Virus record (IMG/VR): IMGVR_UViG_3300036715_001160
Length of the DNA: 20,000 nt
Source: an uncultured virus (IMG/VR IMGVR_UViG_3300036715_001160)
Taxonomy: Duplodnaviria > Heunggongvirae > Uroviricota > Caudoviricetes
Reading direction: 5' to 3' (one strand)
The position numbers and the translations under genes are program-made. A model generated the notes under the pieces. It worked only from the letters and a program-made list of their open reading frames with translations. It had not been told where the DNA came from and did no database searches. Shown here piece after piece: positions 5,176 to 20,000 of this stretch; positions within the stretch are counted from its first letter, which is position 1, and each line of letters starts with the position of its first letter.

Positions 5176-5469
5176 TTAAAAAGGATTTATTACTTTTGGT
5201 TTAGACTTTATATTAAATAGTTTTTTAAAGCCATCTATAAATCCAGTAGCAAGATATGGATTAAGAAATAAATGATCATTGTTAACTACAACATATCCTT
5301 TTAAATACTCTTCTTCAATTTCTGAATAGTTTTTACTTATTTTTTGATTAGGTTTAATCTTTACAAGTATTTTACCTTTATATCTAAATAATACTAAACC
5401 TGAATAACCTAATATAACTGTTCTACCTGGGTAGTTCTTGTCATAATTTCTTACTTCATAAAATTTCAT
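5176..5469 (-). CDS. Hypothetical protein
   Basis: 97 aa, tightly packed (1-2 nt gaps) in the operon, A-rich start context. Confidence 0.7.
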   Translation of the reverse strand: MKFYEVRNYDKNYPGRTVILGYSGLVLFRYKGKILVKIKPNQKISKNYSEIEEEYLKGYVVVNNDHLFLNPYLATGFIDGFKKLFNIKSKPKVINPF

Positions 5470-5471
5470 AA

Positions 5472-6278
5472 TTATAAATTTTTAATTATAGCAATTACTT
5501 CTTCTTTTAAATATGGTATCTCCATTGGTATTACTTGTTTAATTTCTGGATCTCCTTGATCAGTATATTTAGTAATAGGATATCCCCATTCATCTACTCC
5601 ATCTAAGTCAAATGTAACATGATGTATAAACAATTTACCCGGTTTTAATTTTGGGTTATGCTTTAACATAATATACATATATATACTTAATTGTAGTGCA
5701 TAGTGGTTAAAATTACAATCATCCAAATGTGATACAGGTTCCTGTAATTTGTCACTAATCCCATCCCAATCCTTATATGATTCAACATCAATCTTCTTAT
5801 TTGTCTTGTAATCAATGATATTTATCCTATCATTAACTACTTCTACTAAATCTGATTGACCACATATACCTGCAGACTTTAAATAAACCATATGTTCAGG
5901 ATATACACCTTGTTCTAATTTCTGAGAAGGAGCATACTTTAAATTGTTTACTTCAGGTACCGGAGTTATGATTGGTATTATCACACCATCTACTTCCAAT
6001 GAAGATAGACTGCATAGATCTGATTCTCTTTGATTATGATAAAAGGTCCCTAATGATGTAGCTCTTAGTGCTTCACTATCCCAGATTTGAAGTATTTTTT
6101 CTGGTGCTATACCAAACCATTTTGATTTTTTTTGTTTAGAGCATCTAGCAGCTACTTTAACTTTATCAAATGGCTTTTTTAATTTTGATATAAGACTTGT
6201 TACACTAGTCCATTTGATAGATTCTTCACCTTCAGTACTAGTATAACTATGGTCATCTGCTTTAAATACTATACTCAT
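5472..6278 (-). CDS. PD-(D/E)XK nuclease superfamily protein (RecB/Cas4-like exonuclease)
   Basis: 268 aa. LGTFYH...PEHMVY...GICGQSDLV...IIDYKT and HYALQLSIY motifs typical of phage PD-(D/E)XK nucleases. Confidence 0.85.
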   Translation of the reverse strand: MSIVFKADDHSYTSTEGEESIKWTSVTSLISKLKKPFDKVKVAARCSKQKKSKWFGIAPEKILQIWDSEALRATSLGTFYHNQRESDLCSLSSLEVDGVIIPIITPVPEVNNLKYAPSQKLEQGVYPEHMVYLKSAGICGQSDLVEVVNDRINIIDYKTNKKIDVESYKDWDGISDKLQEPVSHLDDCNFNHYALQLSIYMYIMLKHNPKLKPGKLFIHHVTFDLDGVDEWGYPITKYTDQGDPEIKQVIPMEIPYLKEEVIAIIKNL

Positions 6279-14031: not shown

Positions 14032-15726
14032 TTAATAAATTGGTAGTGTGAATAATGGTTCAACTTCTAAATTGTTTGTTGCATATTTTTGTGTTAATAC
14101 ATCTGATATATTCATATTAGAAACACAATTTTTAAGGGCTATAGTTACAGCATTTCCATTAGTATTAACTACAAATCCTCCACCACCAACTAATACAGCA
14201 TCAGTTCGTATCATGGATAATTTTGCAGTAATTGCAGTAACACTAATAATATCTATTGTTGCATCATCTTGGATTATTTTACATTTATCAAATCCAATTT
14301 CATTATTTAAAGATACTAGAAATGCATTAGTTAATGTACCAACTAACTTATTAAATGTTGTGCCATTAAAAAATAATTTTACAACATTACCTGCATTTGC
14401 AAATATAGTTAATGAAGTATTAAATAAACCATTAATACCTTTTATTTTTTTCGAATTGAATACAATTGTCATAACAGAATTATTATGGGAATGAATTCCT
14501 CTAGCAATTGATAAGTCTATATCTCCATTAATGGTTACTAGACCACCAAATGTTTGATTATTCTGAATTAACTGGCTACTTGTATTTGTAGCTTCATTAA
14601 TAATATCTCCATGAATTGTAAATTTAAAATTTGAATCTGTTTGCTGAAAATAGAGTGCATTTTTAAAACTTTGTCCAAATCCCCCTCCAGTTTTCCATAT
14701 CCAACTAGGTGCAGTAAAAATCCACGTTCCTGTACAGTTAACACTACCAGCTGAAATGGCAGTTAAGGTAATTGCGTAGTAAAAGATTACAGGTGTTTTA
14801 CAAGTAAAATTAAAATCACAATCACCTCTTACAGCAATATCCTGTGCCCTATTTCCTAATGTACATTTTTCTAAAATAACCGTTAATTTAGCTTTACCTA
14901 CTGACGTTGTTGGGTTATGTGCTATGCATCTTGTATTGTATAATGATGGTATTGGCATTTTATATACTTCAAATGCTTCAATATGAATATCAGATGCAAA
15001 TAATCCGGAATACAATAATGCATCTTCTTTAAATGTTGCATATCCCAAAACAACAGCTTTCACAGTGTTTACATCATCAATAAATCCACCCGATGTAAAT
15101 ACTACACCTGGTTCGCAATAAGTAATTATATTAGTTTTTAAAGTTATAGATACTGTATAAATACCACTTCTTAAATAAATACATCCTGGTTGGGATTCTG
15201 ATACACCAAATGCAATTAATGCTATTTGTGCTGCGGCAACTGTTATATATGGTTTAGTTACATTTCCTAATATTGCTGTTGAATCATCACCATTTACTAA
15301 ATCTATAAAAGCATAATGAGTATGTAATACAGAACTAACTGATACTAGTGGGTTTCCAGGTGTTCCATCACCTGTTATAGTAGTTCCATCAACAGATAGT
15401 TGAATAATAGGATTAAGTGGATCTGTGTTATCAGTATCTAATCCAGTAACTGAAGCAACACCAGTACTAGTATAATTAGGAATGTTTAATACTGTACCAA
15501 TTAATGTTGATGCACCTGATGTACCTGTTGTAGTTAAAGTAAAAGGAAATGGTAACAAACTAGCAATACTATTAGCTAAATTAGTTGAGGTTATTAATAC
15601 TGGTTGGTAATTACCAATAAAGTTTGGATCTCTTACACCTACCGTAAATAAATCTGTTGCATCCAAGAGTGTTCTAATTTTACCATTACTAATAAGATTA
15701 GAATAATTAGTTATATTATTTAACAT
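14032..15726 (-). CDS. Tailspike/receptor-binding protein with putative beta-helix (pectate-lyase-like) domain
   Basis: Likely start MLNNITNY at 15726 (the track's 15762 extension lies inside a hairpin). FIDLVNGDDSTAILGNVTKPYITVAAA...IYLRSGIY is the typical cap preceding right-handed beta-helices; long I/N/T-rich beta region. Confidence 0.7.
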   Translation of the reverse strand: MLNNITNYSNLISNGKIRTLLDATDLFTVGVRDPNFIGNYQPVLITSTNLANSIASLLPFPFTLTTTGTSGASTLIGTVLNIPNYTSTGVASVTGLDTDNTDPLNPIIQLSVDGTTITGDGTPGNPLVSVSSVLHTHYAFIDLVNGDDSTAILGNVTKPYITVAAAQIALIAFGVSESQPGCIYLRSGIYTVSITLKTNIITYCEPGVVFTSGGFIDDVNTVKAVVLGYATFKEDALLYSGLFASDIHIEAFEVYKMPIPSLYNTRCIAHNPTTSVGKAKLTVILEKCTLGNRAQDIAVRGDCDFNFTCKTPVIFYYAITLTAISAGSVNCTGTWIFTAPSWIWKTGGGFGQSFKNALYFQQTDSNFKFTIHGDIINEATNTSSQLIQNNQTFGGLVTINGDIDLSIARGIHSHNNSVMTIVFNSKKIKGINGLFNTSLTIFANAGNVVKLFFNGTTFNKLVGTLTNAFLVSLNNEIGFDKCKIIQDDATIDIISVTAITAKLSMIRTDAVLVGGGGFVVNTNGNAVTIALKNCVSNMNISDVLTQKYATNNLEVEPLFTLPIY

Positions 15727-15749
15727 GATTATTATTTTTAGTTTAATGT

Positions 15750-15784
15750 AAAAATACCACAAACATATTATATCTGTGGTATTT
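15750..15784 (-). terminator. 15-bp hairpin (terminator/attenuator or processing stem)
   Basis: AAATACCACAGATAT-AAT-ATGTTTGTGGTATTT on the minus strand (two G-U pairs), ending in a short T run. Confidence 0.6.
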
Positions 15785-15807
15785 ATATTTTTTTATTTTT
15801 TTTTTAA

Positions 15808-16041
15808 TTACGGTACTATTGTAGGTACGTGTGTAGTTTTAATATCACCTGATCCTTCTTCACGAAAATATACCCCTAATCCAAATGTGTTATATACATT
15901 AGTATTACTATTTGTATTAACAAAAAAATCATATAATGCAGTTAATGCTACTGCTTTTTCATCTAATGATACTGAGTTATTCATCAATACTGATGCATAT
16001 ACTTTAATATCTGCTTCTTTTAATGCTGGTGCTGCTGCCAT
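15808..16041 (-). CDS. Small hypothetical protein
   Basis: 77 aa, A-rich start context, same strand as the operon. Confidence 0.7.
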   Translation of the reverse strand: MAAAPALKEADIKVYASVLMNNSVSLDEKAVALTALYDFFVNTNSNTNVYNTFGLGVYFREEGSGDIKTTHVPTIVP

Positions 16042-16067
16042 GTTATTTATTTTTTATAGTTAATTAA

Positions 16068-16274
16068 TTAATTTTTTACTGGTTTTACATGATCTTGTTT
16101 TCTACTATCCAATAAAGCTTTTTTCATTTCTTCAATTTTTTTTCTAATTCCTGCTTTACGTGGATTTTCTTTTTCTTCTGTTGCTACTGCTTCAGCTGCT
16201 TTAGCTTTAGTCAATTTTGGAGCAACTGTTTTACCCCATCCTTCTGGTGTTTTACCAAATGTTTTTCTTTCCAT
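16068..16274 (-). CDS. Small basic Lys/Ala/Glu-rich protein (possible internal virion/DNA-binding protein)
   Basis: 68 aa, low complexity, A-rich start context. Confidence 0.65.
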   Translation of the reverse strand: MERKTFGKTPEGWGKTVAPKLTKAKAAEAVATEEKENPRKAGIRKKIEEMKKALLDSRKQDHVKPVKN

Positions 16275-16292
16275 GATAAATATTTTTTAAAA

Positions 16293-16970
16293 TTAATAAA
16301 TAGTAAATTTAATTGGTTCACCTTCAATTTCTAAGAACTCATATTCAAATGAAATTAAAGCTTGCATACCATCTACTGCTGTGTTACTTACAACTACTAA
16401 ATATAAATCTACAGCATCAGGTGCATAATAATCAAGTGCAATAGTCATAAGTTCTGCAGGTGCAGCATCTCCAAAACCATCTGCTACCATAGCACCATTT
16501 GCAAAAGCACTTGTAAAAGGACTTGGAAAAGGAGCACTAACAAATGCACCAACACTACCTGAAGTTTTCCAAGGTAAATTAAATAAATCATCACCATTAA
16601 CTGATTCAACTGTACCAATATATTCTACAGTAACATTAACACCTTCTAGTAAACCATATGATCCACCTACTTTATACCCAACTAAATTTGCTGCAAATGC
16701 TGTAGGAAAAGCAGGAGTATCTTCAATTCTTGTACAAGTAGATAACATTGATGGTGTAATATACCAAGGATAATCATCTAAGATACCTGTCTTATAAGTA
16801 CTATTAACTTGACAACCTGCAGCAACTGCATCATTTAATGTCATTGCTACTGTAAGATACTTGTCATCTCTTTTTGTTGACGGTGCACCTACAGCAATTA
16901 GAGATCCATCTGGAGGTGTAGTAGTTACACGCTTTGCTTTAATCCAGGAAATAAAATTTAAAATGTCCAT
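16293..16970 (-). CDS. Putative virion protein sharing an N-terminal domain with the tailspike
   Basis: 225 aa; gapless 42-aa similarity to the tailspike N-terminus; follows a late-promoter motif. Confidence 0.65.
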   Translation of the reverse strand: MDILNFISWIKAKRVTTTPPDGSLIAVGAPSTKRDDKYLTVAMTLNDAVAAGCQVNSTYKTGILDDYPWYITPSMLSTCTRIEDTPAFPTAFAANLVGYKVGGSYGLLEGVNVTVEYIGTVESVNGDDLFNLPWKTSGSVGAFVSAPFPSPFTSAFANGAMVADGFGDAAPAELMTIALDYYAPDAVDLYLVVVSNTAVDGMQALISFEYEFLEIEGEPIKFTIY

Positions 16971-16990
16971 GTTTATTTATTTTTAATATA

Positions 16991-17007
16991 TATATACTAT
17001 AATATAC
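16991..17007 (-). promoter_or_regulatory. Putative phage late promoter GTATATTA-TAG-TATATA
   Basis: Third copy of the motif, 21 nt before the ATG at 16970 and just downstream of a terminator. Confidence 0.5.
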
Positions 17008-17020
17008 AAAATAATTATAT

Positions 17021-17053
17021 AAAAACAAAATCCTTAAAAATAATTCAAGGATT
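17021..17053 (-). terminator. Intrinsic terminator
   Basis: AATCCTT...AAGGATT stem followed by TTGTTTTT, just after the HEXXH gene. Confidence 0.7.
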
Positions 17054-17065
17054 CTTTTGAGTAAT

Positions 17066-17527
17066 TTATCTTTTAAAGAATTGTTTTTTAGGACTTTCCT
17101 TTTTATCAAAGTCTAACTTCTTAATAATCTTATTAGCTTCATCCTCTGCAAAAGTAATAACCTCTTCTTCTTTATCTTTTATATTCCAGTTATTAAGTAA
17201 GATAGCCATATGCATAGTCTCATGCATAACTGCTGTAGCTTTTTCAGTAGTATTATATCTTTTAAATGTACCAAGGTTTATAAACAAGAATGGTTTGTAT
17301 GGATCCTTTGCAGTTAACTTCTTATCTGCAGGATCATAGTTAGTTAATCCATAAAGATAAACACCATTACCTTCATCTCCTTTTTTAGGAGTAGTCTTAT
17401 CTACCTCTTCTGCTTGTGCATCCTTCCTATTCAACCCATGCATTTCATCAACCTTATAGTAATCAAATATCTCTGTAGCATTATTACCTGCAAACAGTAT
17501 ATATTTTCCCATGTCAAATTTTTTCAT
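17066..17527 (-). CDS. Zincin-like HEXXH metallopeptidase-motif protein
   Basis: 153 aa. VMHETMHMA followed by EEE; own promoter (TATATTTG 17551-17558) and terminator. Confidence 0.7.
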   Translation of the reverse strand: MKKFDMGKYILFAGNNATEIFDYYKVDEMHGLNRKDAQAEEVDKTTPKKGDEGNGVYLYGLTNYDPADKKLTAKDPYKPFLFINLGTFKRYNTTEKATAVMHETMHMAILLNNWNIKDKEEEVITFAEDEANKIIKKLDFDKKESPKKQFFKR

Positions 17528-17563
17528 AAAATAAATTTAAATCATCATTACAAATATATATAT

Positions 17564-17652
17564 AAAAACAAAATCCCAGATTAATTTTCTGGGATTTCCT
17601 TACCTAGCTAGTCAAATAAATAGCTTAAATCAGAGAATGGTTGTTTTAGCTA
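17564..17652 (-). ncRNA. Candidate small RNA 1 (AGGTAAG + terminator scaffold)
   Basis: Promoter-like TATATTGC (17655-17662), no ORF, GCTAGGTAAG, then hairpin AAATCCCAGA/TCTGGGATTT and TTGTTTTT-type tail. Ends approximate. Confidence 0.55.
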
Positions 17653-17677
17653 ATGCAATATATAAATAATATTTTAA

Positions 17678-17899
17678 TCAAATATACTTTTTTAATTTTT
17701 TATTTTTAATTTTTTTTGCTTTATGTATACTCTTTTTAGCAGAGCTTCTTGTATTAATCATTTTGTTTTTAACTCTTAAGTCTTCCTTAAATACAATCTT
17801 ACTACGCATTGCCATATCATCATTGTGACTTCCTCCTTGATTATAGTTAGGACCAACTGATGCACATGAATACAATAATAATATCAAAAGCCATTTCAT
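17678..17899 (-). CDS. Small lipoprotein
   Basis: MKWLLILLLYSC lipobox signal; very basic C-terminus. Confidence 0.65.
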   Translation of the reverse strand: MKWLLILLLYSCASVGPNYNQGGSHNDDMAMRSKIVFKEDLRVKNKMINTRSSAKKSIHKAKKIKNKKLKKYI

Positions 17900-18192
17900 T
17901 TCTTTAACTCAGCTATTCTTCTTTTTAAATATACTTCAGCTTTTTCCAGATCCTCTAACTCTTTAGCAGCATCTTTTTTTCCAGTTCTTGCCAGATACTT
18001 AATTACATTACCTAAGTAAAAATCTTTATCAAGTCCCCATGCTTCTAGTACATCAAATAATGCATATTCATTATTTGGTTTTAGTACAGGCTTAGGAGTT
18101 GTATACTTAAAAGAATTTGGTAATGCATTATCATAATATCTATTACTTCTTTTCTCATTATAGAGATCACAAAGTTTATCTATATCTACCAT
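17896..18192 (-). CDS. DUF3310 (SaV-like) domain protein
   Basis: FYLGNVIKYLARTGKK...EDLEKAEVYL signature. Confidence 0.8.
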   Translation of the reverse strand: MVDIDKLCDLYNEKRSNRYYDNALPNSFKYTTPKPVLKPNNEYALFDVLEAWGLDKDFYLGNVIKYLARTGKKDAAKELEDLEKAEVYLKRRIAELKK

Positions 18193-18476
18193 ACTATTGC
18201 AATATCATATTCACTTACCATCAACTTAATACCTCCATCAACTTCAATTGCTTCTGCATTCTTGATAGAATTAACACCAATGTAAACTACATCACCTGCC
18301 TCTAAAGTTTTAACTTCTTCACCAACTGCATACACTGTTAACTTGGTCCACTTCTTCATGTCCTCAGTATCCATGTGTGCTTTATCAGCTTCACTTAATT
18401 CAATCACAGATTCTTTTCTTTCTGGCTGACTGATTAATACTCTACGTCCCTTAAGACTTTTAATTGCTTTACTCAT
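18186..18476 (-). CDS. groES: GroES/Cpn10-like co-chaperonin
   Basis: 96 aa. LKGRRVLI...VYAVGEEVKTLEAGDVVY...LMVSEYDIAIV matches the Cpn10 pattern. Confidence 0.8.
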   Translation of the reverse strand: MSKAIKSLKGRRVLISQPERKESVIELSEADKAHMDTEDMKKWTKLTVYAVGEEVKTLEAGDVVYIGVNSIKNAEAIEVDGGIKLMVSEYDIAIVW

Positions 18477-18537
18477 AATATTATGTTTTAATTATCCAGT
18501 AAAGATAATAAATTTATTAAACAATTAAAGTTTAAAC

Positions 18538-18625
18538 AAAAAAATAAGTCTAGATTTTTAAACCTAGACTTACCTTAATAACCAATTAAAACAATAACCA
18601 TTATAAATCGCAAAACAATAATGAT
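18538..18625 (-). ncRNA. Candidate small RNA 2
   Basis: TATATTTG promoter 18630-18637, U-rich body without a credible ORF, AGGTAAG running into hairpin TAAGTCTAG/CTAGACTTA and a T7 tail. Ends approximate. Confidence 0.55.
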
Positions 18626-18641
18626 ATCACAAATATAAGTA

Positions 18642-18905
18642 TTATTCAAATACTTTATACATTCTATTAAATTTTTTTTCTGGCATAAAAGAAAATGTAC
18701 CGGCCCAATCCTGTATCACATAGTCCCCCGGTGCTAATCTAATCTCACCATTCATAGTAGTGAGAAAAAAGCTATCAAATTTATGATTGATATAATTAAT
18801 GTGTCCCTCAAAATCCTCATACCCGGAAATCTTAATAGCACATTCTTCTGTACCATCATACTGTATAGCCTCAACACTCTTAGGCCTTTCTCTATATAAC
18901 TGCAT
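18642..18905 (-). CDS. Conserved small phage protein (VEAIQYDG...PGDYVI family)
   Basis: Likely start MQLYRERPKSVEAIQ at 18905 (87 aa), preceded by TATCTTTG at 18925-18932; the track's longer start crosses a terminator. Confidence 0.75.
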   Translation of the reverse strand: MQLYRERPKSVEAIQYDGTEECAIKISGYEDFEGHINYINHKFDSFFLTTMNGEIRLAPGDYVIQDWAGTFSFMPEKKFNRMYKVFE

Positions 18906-18937
18906 AATAAATAATTTTAAGATACAAAGATAATAAT

Positions 18938-19004
18938 AAAAACAAAACCTCCAGATTACTCCAGAGGTTTTCTTACCTAGCAAATTATGAAATGTTATTT
19001 TACT
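18938..19004 (-). ncRNA. Candidate small RNA 3
   Basis: TATATTTG promoter 19009-19016, GCTAGGTAAG, hairpin AAAACCTCTGGA-GTAA-TCTGGAGGTTTT, then GTTTTT. Ends approximate. Confidence 0.6.
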
Positions 19005-19186
19005 AATACAAATATATAATAATTCCCCGGAATACACCTTACCTATAATAAATAAATGCACTTACGGATTTATTGTATGCAGAATGAGGTGTACACATTT
19101 TGTATATGCATGAGATGGAGGTGGGCCCTTATTCAACAACCCCCCGGCCCTTCAGGCCTAGCTGGTACCCCCCATTGTTTAAAGGA

Positions 19187-19205
19187 ATTCAGCTCACAAC
19201 CATTA
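19187..19205 (+). promoter_or_regulatory. Repeated cassette motif 1, ATTCAGCTCACAACCATTA (putative phage early promoter)
   Basis: One of three near-identical 19-mers, each preceding a plus-strand ORF. Confidence 0.6.
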
Positions 19206-19223
19206 TGAAAAATACTAAAAATT

Positions 19224-19421
19224 ATGCGTACAGATATTAAAATTGTACTAGTGTTGGTAGATCCAACACTAGCTACTGCTGCACCTGAAGGTAGCAGAGT
19301 AATTGCTATGAGCCAAGCTCAAGCAATGATCAACACCTGGATAACACAAGGTGTGCTTGTTAAATATAAAGTTGGCCCTTGTAATGACCACTTATTATTT
19401 GAGATTATAAGAACTAAGTAG
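19224..19421 (+). CDS. Small hypothetical (early) protein
   Basis: 65 aa, AAAATTATG start context, between the repeat motif and a terminator hairpin. Confidence 0.65.
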   Translation: MRTDIKIVLVLVDPTLATAAPEGSRVIAMSQAQAMINTWITQGVLVKYKVGPCNDHLLFEIIRTK

Positions 19422-19447
19422 GGGTTATACCCTTACTTATTTTTTTT
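19415..19447 (+). terminator. Intrinsic terminator-like hairpin
   Basis: TAAGTAGGGG-TTATA-CCCTTACTTA plus T8; overlaps the TAG stop. Confidence 0.75.
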
Positions 19448-19452
19448 AATAT

Positions 19453-19471
19453 ATTCAGCTCTTAACTATTA
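19453..19471 (+). promoter_or_regulatory. Repeated cassette motif 2, ATTCAGCTCTTAACTATTA
   Basis: Second copy, 266 nt after the first. Confidence 0.65.
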
Positions 19472-19497
19472 TTAATTATTAATTTAAACTAAAGATT

Positions 19498-19701
19498 ATG
19501 GACACAGAAACAGTATTACAAATTATTGCTATGATAGACAGTAGATTAGCTATCATAGAAGAAACATTTATAATTGACTTTGATAAAGAAGAACGCTATG
19601 ATACAGGTCAACAAATAGGTAAAGAAAAAGCTCTTGAAGAGTTAAGAAACCACTTACAAGACTATATTGAATTACAAGTATTACAAATAGAAGGGGTGTA
19701 A
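19498..19701 (+). CDS. Small acidic helical hypothetical (early) protein
   Basis: 67 aa within a cassette unit. Confidence 0.75.
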   Translation: MDTETVLQIIAMIDSRLAIIEETFIIDFDKEERYDTGQQIGKEKALEELRNHLQDYIELQVLQIEGV

Positions 19702-19716
19702 TACCCTTTCTTTTTT
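19689..19716 (+). terminator. Intrinsic terminator-like hairpin
   Basis: AGAAGGGGTG-TAA-TACCCTTTCT plus T run; the TAA stop codon forms the loop. Confidence 0.75.
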
Positions 19717-19735
19717 ATTCAGCTTTTAACTATTA
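19717..19735 (+). promoter_or_regulatory. Repeated cassette motif 3, ATTCAGCTTTTAACTATTA
   Basis: Third copy, 264 nt after the second; 18/19 identical to copy 2. Confidence 0.65.
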
Positions 19736-19754
19736 ATAATTAAATTTATATATT

Positions 19755-19988
19755 ATGGATTGTACAATAATTGGAGTAGGTAACACAATATCATATGAAC
19801 ACGGTTTTATAAAACATGAGGGTGTTGTAATTGGTGCTGTAAAAAATGTTTTATACACTGAAGCAGTTGAGTGTAATATAAAACTAATAAATGATATCTA
19901 TAATCAACCAAGACCTATCACTGATGATAGCTTTGATATTATGGATAGTTTAATAAATGTAACATACAGTATGATACACTGGTTGTAA
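19755..19988 (+). CDS. Small hypothetical (early) protein
   Basis: 77 aa within a cassette unit. Confidence 0.7.
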   Translation: MDCTIIGVGNTISYEHGFIKHEGVVIGAVKNVLYTEAVECNIKLINDIYNQPRPITDDSFDIMDSLINVTYSMIHWL

Positions 19989-20000
19989 TTAAGAGTGGGT

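Follow-up and report, generated by a model that had tools for sequence, protein, structure and literature searches.

What are three short promoter-to-terminator units on the minus strand of a phage genome for, and would RNAs made from them act on start codons? The stretch analysed here, the window, is 20,000 nucleotides of DNA from an uncultured virus (IMG/VR record IMGVR_UViG_3300036715_001160). The first-pass annotation had taken all three units as small RNAs that pair over the start codons of host or phage mRNAs and together form a class of programmable repressors. That reading is supported for unit 2, with a gene of the phage itself as the target, but not for units 1 and 3, not for host targets and not for a programmable class. 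We consider it likely that unit 2 encodes a trans-acting phage small RNA that blocks translation of the phage's own mRNA for an SSB-like protein, and perhaps that of a NinB-like protein too. On the sequences compared, its complementarity, its specificity and the joint change of RNA and leader are supported.

Portal and terminase of the window match PHROG 6547 and 6681 and mark it as part of a crAss-like phage; the 20 terminase relatives listed are mostly crAss-type records, at 22-25% identity. Structural genes lie on the minus strand, and small plus-strand genes run from 19224 onward. The record nearest to the window, G001, ends just beyond unit 3; G003, which is 90% complete with 106,750 bases, is ~91% identical to the window over 17552-19022. 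The ORF starts of six related phage records (n=714) have A at -3, -6 and -13 to -11, with little G. In Flavobacterium johnsoniae A-12/A-13 and A-3/A-6 raise translation (PMC6847099), and because the phage starts resemble those of F. johnsoniae a Bacteroidota host is inferred.

The units have a common layout on the minus strand (Table 1), in which a TAnnTTTG-type box is followed by a U-rich segment of 30-55 nt and then by the hairpin of a terminator. TAnnTTTG is the consensus of the Bacteroidota promoter box. By itself such a box is no commoner in the window than expected (35 vs 33); what matters is where it stands. Of the 9 terminator-like sites in 15500-20000 (1.4 expected), the 3 with the longest stems are the minus-strand hairpins of the three units. 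Rfam gave no match over any of the three units. A survey of IMG/VR and metagenome contigs yielded at least 63 distinct box-bearing units in at least 27 clusters. In RNA runs X1 and X2 (contigs; 5-6% of words shared) the flanking genes are covered and the units are not, an absence that is uninformative. The 96-aa protein downstream of unit 2 resembles, as we take it by eye, the GroES co-chaperonin; Pfam and PHROG searches with it gave no GroES match. On the plus strand, the small early-type genes of 19170-20000 are arranged as cassettes that share a recurring leader motif, TTCAGCT, and have GC-rich terminators of their own (19415-19439, 19689-19711). Sister-clade genomes have ACCATTTT(T)ATAACT where the window has TTCAGCT, so that the motif is a candidate for a clade-specific promoter of a phage polymerase.

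Table 1. Features of the three units and of their surroundings, in window coordinates
Feature	Position	Strand	Remark
Proposed unit-3 target, start of 97-aa gene	5463..5473	-	Probably chance
Unit 1, predicted small RNA	17565..17652	-	UAGGUAAG-terminator class
Unit 1 UAGGUAAG signal before terminator	17599..17606	-	Hairpin 17570-17598
Unit 1 probable box TATATTGC	17655-17662	-	Alternative box 17679-17686
96-aa gene	18186..18476	-	Downstream of unit 2; synteny marker; no family match
Unit 2, predicted ~88-nt small RNA	18538..18626	-	5' end assumed 4 nt after box
Unit 2 intrinsic terminator	18541..18576	-	GGUAAG is part of the stem, not invariant
Unit 2 seed UUUUGCGAUU	18606..18615	-	Complementary to AAUCGCAAAA upstream of target AUG
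Unit 2 anti-start-codon CAU	18621..18623	-	In register with target AUG
Unit 2 promoter box TATATTTG	18630..18637	-	
88-aa gene	18642..18908	-	Directly upstream of unit 2; synteny marker; PHROG 419/1810
Unit 3, predicted small RNA	18938..19005	-	UAGGUAAG-terminator class; box 19009-19016
Unit 3 hairpin	18944-18971	-	
Unit 3 UAGGUAAG	18972-18979	-	
Unit 3 core	18981-18996	-	

Do the units, taken as a class, look like translation starts? The plus-strand ATGs from which that likeness was drawn are present at 17637, 18621 and 18987 and, as had been noted, start no long ORF (10, 5 and 10 codons opened). The further claim, that all three variable regions read like Bacteroidota start regions, does not rise above chance. 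Under a weight matrix from the 714 real starts of the six records their ATG contexts score -2.6, -1.6 and -0.5, which among real starts corresponds to percentiles 8, 11 and 17 (p against shuffles 0.73, 0.74 and 0.21), and shuffled regions yield an ATG with at least 5 A in the preceding 12 nt in 36%, 20% and 19% of trials. Over the 27 unit clusters among the matches listed, CAT has a count of 14.0 vs 10.6 expected (p 0.11), and of 6.4 vs 3.9 within the first 12 nt (p 0.08). Start-centred complementarity, set against shuffles, is far beyond chance for unit 2, but in their own genomes 19 of the 22 rows other than unit 2 have p >0.05; of the 3 with low p, one is a self-orthologue, one a cis overlap and one a match in a coding region that relatives have not kept.

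Start tests in their own genomes found no target for unit 1 or for unit 3. Unit 1 has CAT in 2/6 orthologue sequences, its ATG being missing in 4/6; the core of unit 3 is kept in 4/4 variants, and in close relatives the unit is replaced by unrelated fronts or stacked with them. A target had been named for unit 3, the start of the phage's own 97-aa gene, and the complementary 11-mer does exist there, but its significance is marginal and it is probably chance: a match of at least 11 nt over a start codon arises in 4% of unit-3 shuffles and in 9% of the ATG-holding ones (206 phage starts), p among the window's 34 ORFs is 0.016, or 0.037 given the ATG, and the site is kept in G002, G003, G006 and G011, all of them without unit 3. 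A 14-nt match of unit 3 in G001 was rejected; it falls in the 3'-terminal part of a reading frame upstream, and five relatives have not kept it. By exact match the unit-3 15-mer was found in 4 of 401 genomes of one order, that of a Flavobacteriaceae genome, vs 6 control matches. Against their own loci 7/8 of the UAGGUAAG rows are null, and one has a gapped match at p 0.01 among 41 rows. Over their own genomes and the 401 genomes of one order, neither unit combines a conserved anti-AUG with an above-chance target, and the start-codon look of both is, as far as tested, chance.

What units 1 and 3 share is an ending, UAGGUAAG ahead of a common type of terminator. Among the matches listed, UAGGUAAG directly before the terminator recurs in about 60 units of relatives while the fronts swap, a constancy that is partly built in because UAGGUAAG was the search motif. 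Several of the unrelated fronts begin GUAUCAU. A GTDB scan for UAGGUAAG plus terminator returned mixed taxa, with 0 loci in the box-bearing set among the matches listed. Units of this kind are also carried by G022-G026 (L303, L289, L292, L277, L428; ~30 kb estimated genome, CheckV), and since these are records with far smaller estimated genomes the module may cross phage groups. A fourth AGGTAAG, at 19037-19043 (-) just upstream of unit 3, has no hairpin; it may be a remnant, because in L005 and L182 unit 3 is immediately preceded by one more complete unit.

Unit 2 belongs to a family separate from the UAGGUAAG class, because its GGUAAG lies in the terminator stem and varies. It has what a small RNA gene calls for, a promoter box, TATATTTG, which we take to fit the Bacteroidota TAnnTTTG box, together with an intrinsic terminator and no ORF. 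In its family (11 sequences, one alignment) the core TTT.CG.T is invariant in 11/11, and TAT.TTT of the box is kept in 11/11 members (alignment A2). The terminator has 12 consensus pairs, 6 of them with both sides changed, and no conserved structure was found in the family outside it. In fold predictions the seed sits in the loop of a weak 5' hairpin and part of the CAU is paired within the RNA itself; several sister-clade members have CGU, a wobble, for the CAU.

To which mRNA would such an RNA pair? In close relatives the reverse complement of unit 2 aligns with -46 to +4 of an early SSB-like gene on the opposite strand. This 156-aa gene lies outside the window, and the RNA of the window's unit 2 was tested on the G003 leader. 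When 9 units were run by duplex folding against all G003 starts unit 2 was singled out, at -34.2 vs -25.5 +/- 2.2, and the 8-mer ATCGCAAA has just two occurrences in G003 (106,750 bases), one within unit 2 and one at position -18 of the 156-aa plus-strand gene. On the -40..+20 windows proposed in the first-pass annotation RNAduplex ranked the NinB-like gene first; the SSB-like gene was absent from the top three and was recovered by a wider window with composition-aware scoring. Searching own and related genomes for exact matches turned up nothing but AT-rich stretches of 11-15 nt; the gapped target escaped it. Composition-aware alignment makes the 156-aa gene the best of 119-160 starts in 5/5 unit-2 rows (p 0-0.01), with the 128-aa NinB-like gene second in 5/5 (p 0.015-0.07); the five rows share the G003 leader or an identical one, and G003 starts were added for fragmentary genomes. 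Within whole loci the pairing with the SSB-like leader is the best match (L659 27.1 vs 20.8; L661 32.1 vs 20.1; 0/20 shuffles each). When 41 units were set, unselected, against their own loci, 4/4 unit-2 rows and L760 came out at 0/200 shuffles, all on the SSB-like gene; four other rows had p 0.01-0.04.

The sister clade offered a test by prediction. In G005 (121 kb, complete; target-orthologue protein 55% identical) and in G018 the orthologous gene has a different leader. Genome-wide, the best match of the G005 leader is a syntenic promoter-terminator unit (36.6 vs 24.1 +/- 2.3, 10 shuffles); the G018 leader likewise finds the syntenic unit (33.5 vs 23.4 +/- 2.6, 10 shuffles), and both units sit just behind the orthologous 88-aa gene. 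For the G019 leader the syntenic unit is again the best match genome-wide, not clearly above shuffles (24.9 vs 22.8 +/- 1.5), and tested alone that unit scores 24.9 against 11.7; the best match of the G011 leader is also not clearly above shuffles (27.1 vs 23.4 +/- 3.2). Among the starts of its own genome the SSB-like gene ranks 1/156, 1/146 and 1/133 in G005, G018 and G019 by duplex energy, alignment and co-folding, and in G003 (120 starts) 1 by alignment and 2 by energies. The target gene is present in 1/10 further fragments, and G006-type unit 2 goes unpaired with a leader of its own because the fragments are too short or unrelated. The imperfect complementarity of unit 2 to a distant mRNA start region exceeds chance, as is looked for in a small RNA acting in trans.

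For the 156-aa protein, with 509 near relatives and 619 cluster representatives, there is no Pfam or PHROG match, and PDB sequence and profile searches gave nothing useful; the Atlas lead is SSB (0.88). A first structure model, from 12 sequences, had pLDDT 38.8 and was rejected, and on the model used (pLDDT 92) SSBs head the Foldseek lists, weakly (E 1.3e-3 to 0.06), while VIA reaches Z 5.0 at most, with an SSB at Z 4.7, rmsd 4.9 and 63 residues aligned. A C-terminal tail ending EF.F/EF.I is conserved in 12 rows. Going by the model, the protein is probably SSB-like. The 128-aa second target resembles an Atlas NinB-family cluster (0.95; 217/256 features) in which 24% of members have PF05772, and has itself no direct Pfam match to PF05772. 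NinB binds single-stranded DNA in recombination. The 128-aa gene fits unit 2 only in the window's clade, at -24 to -29 vs -15 to -18 with sister-clade leaders. In L673, L675, L678, L693 and L689 a near-copy of the SSB-like leader, in sense orientation, precedes a further early gene, a hint that early leaders are co-regulated.

RNA and leader have changed together. Own-clade duplexes come to -27.9 to -38.3 kcal/mol in 7/7 family rows (at most 1/300 shuffles), cross-clade ones to only -13.9 to -18.0 kcal/mol, and the energy matrix is block-shaped. Two seed positions differ between the clades, on both sides (mRNA AAUCGCAAA with RNA UUUGCGAUU vs mRNA AACCGUAAA with RNA UUUACGGUU); the pair at +4 is A/U in one clade and G/C in the other, and in G019 the base at -1 has become C and faces a G. 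The target-protein tree places the two clades on separate starred (well-supported) branches. Pairing is kept by both-side changes and by wobble pairs, as in small RNAs that act by pairing, over few independent clades; the independent events are few because the family is confined to the two clades and the diverged G019. Ten distant units, hand-picked and partly with other terminators, were also compared with their own SSB-like leaders: 4 pair and 6 do not. The four are shorter units (L760 ~2754 and L762 ~305 at 0/300 shuffles; L749 ~3694 and L675 ~2173 at 3/300) that pair with -30..-5 of the leader through G:U, and are possibly separate solutions to the same regulation.

Might the likeness be a matter of DNA only, with unit 2 the relic of an old early-gene leader copy, kept alike by descent or gene conversion and of no function as RNA? 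A leader-like sequence does stand on the early strand, with the ATG retained in the window, and sense-orientation sharing of leaders is seen among early genes of relatives (L673, L675, L678, L689). A DNA copy, however, predicts symmetric transitions, and under symmetric scoring there are 30 of G:U type vs 4 of A:C type (11 pairing rows of 17), or 11:2, 13:3 and 14:3 with one row per lineage (p 0.006-0.011), for which reason RNA pairing is favoured. The ATG, moreover, is ACG in G005, G018 and G029 and still pairs as RNA, the box of the minus-strand promoter is retained and the terminator shows covariation, so that a relic seems very unlikely. No better placed is the proposal that all three units are interchangeable guides, silencing host start codons by way of a common protein handle. 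The UAGGUAAG units do behave as cassettes that are acquired, lost and stacked (two stand in tandem in L005 and in L182), and the GUAUCAU with which several units begin is matched by an early CAU in the FopS consensus; but neither CAT (in the clusters among the matches listed) nor the start-like score is in excess, the ATG of unit 1 is not kept, the unit-3 15-mer has no excess in the 401 genomes of one order, and unit 2, whose GGUAAG is a variable part of a terminator stem, has a phage target. We regard such guides as quite improbable.

A different doubt accepts the pairing with the leader as real and disputes its effect: instead of repressing initiation, the RNA might activate by opening a leader hairpin, or cleave or stabilise the early transcript. 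Leaders of G005 and G019 are predicted to fold near the AUG, and a 50-nt interrupted duplex would be long enough for a double-strand nuclease. The G003 leader is nevertheless predicted to be mostly open, the -13/-12 adenines lie within the duplex, which extends to the AUG (as far as +4 in six family rows and +1 in G019), and in Bacteroides GibS, MasB, BatR and FopS pair near start codons, with FopS-10 blocking translation in vitro (PMC11697453). On balance an effect other than repression of initiation is unlikely.

How, then, would unit 2 repress? It would be an independent small-RNA gene, lying on the strand of the structural genes and equipped with a promoter of host type and a terminator of its own, perhaps transcribed at middle or late times by host RNA polymerase. 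The timing is suggested by an early strand nearly without host-type boxes (0, 1 and 0 in 6.5 kb) and by the arrangement in phi14:2, where the replicative module is transcribed early by the virion polymerase and the opposite strand later by host polymerase (10.1101/2020.03.07.982082); counting against it, the same source describes the phi14:2 middle promoters as -35/-10-like, not TAnnTTTG. The seed, held in its loop, may make first contact with the leader, and the largely single-stranded 5' part would pair in trans with ~50 nt of leader and start codon of a target ~6-9 kb away on the opposite, early strand. With the A-rich -13/-12 region and the AUG covered, 30S loading would be blocked and the replication protein turned down once packaging begins; in the window's clade the RNA may act similarly on the NinB-like gene, whose start it also fits. 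Because the RNA mirrors the start of its target and both have changed together, unit 2 probably turns off the phage's own replication protein later in infection. A grander scheme would make the island a post-transcriptional control panel, with unit 2 shutting off single-stranded-DNA proteins at the switch from replication to packaging and the UAGGUAAG units as re-aimable host-silencing guides on one phage or host protein, a modular small-RNA array in SD-free Bacteroidota; we would give this a small chance of being right.

For crAss-like phages, temporal control has so far been explained in terms of two polymerases (10.1101/2020.03.07.982082). In what is accessible of PMC8375218 antisense or small RNA goes unmentioned, and titles and abstract beginnings from the literature on crAssphage small RNA or transcriptomes and on Crassvirales noncoding RNA, from a collection that leaves out most subscription journals, have nothing on such an RNA. 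Unit 2 would add a candidate translational layer, reaching from the late strand back to the replication module, for which RNA and target can both be named and nature has supplied compensatory variants. It also indicates that, when SD is not used, a small RNA may place its seed immediately 5' of the -13/-12 adenines. A natural cross-specificity pair of RNA and leader is provided by the two clades.

Among known systems FopS and GibS of Bacteroides thetaiotaomicron resemble unit 2 in having a promoter, a single-stranded 5' stretch and a Rho-independent terminator, and in pairing close to start codons in a host that makes no use of SD; the FopS consensus has its CAU early as well (PMC11697453). 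FopS is, in the same text, a 12-15-copy host family that acts on susC-type mRNAs through one shared seed and binds RbpB, whereas unit 2 is single-copy and phage-borne, its target is a gene of the same phage, and its seed changes along with that target. The FopS structure is stated there to be deposited in Rfam; our comparison of the FopS consensus with the units was by eye only. In distant relatives, promoter-terminator units at L054 ~2575, L083 ~2652, L086 ~1152 and L692 ~1109 have, by eye, FopS-like fronts (early UCAUA, later AAGGUU/GGUUA).

Phages themselves supply further parallels (PMC12197685). The c4 antisense RNA of P1 and P7 is, like unit 2, a trans-acting phage RNA of ~80 nt that pairs with the phage's own mRNA; c4 controls an antirepressor in temperate immunity, while unit 2 would reach from structural strand to replication strand in a crAss-like phage, covers leader and AUG and has no sequence likeness to c4. 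Lambda OOP, P22 sas and BTP1 STnc6030 are pairing phage RNAs that dampen a phage gene, as is proposed for unit 2. Those three are described in that source as antisense RNAs to their target genes, unlike unit 2, which lies kilobases from its target and would find it through imperfect pairing, with bulges and G:U.
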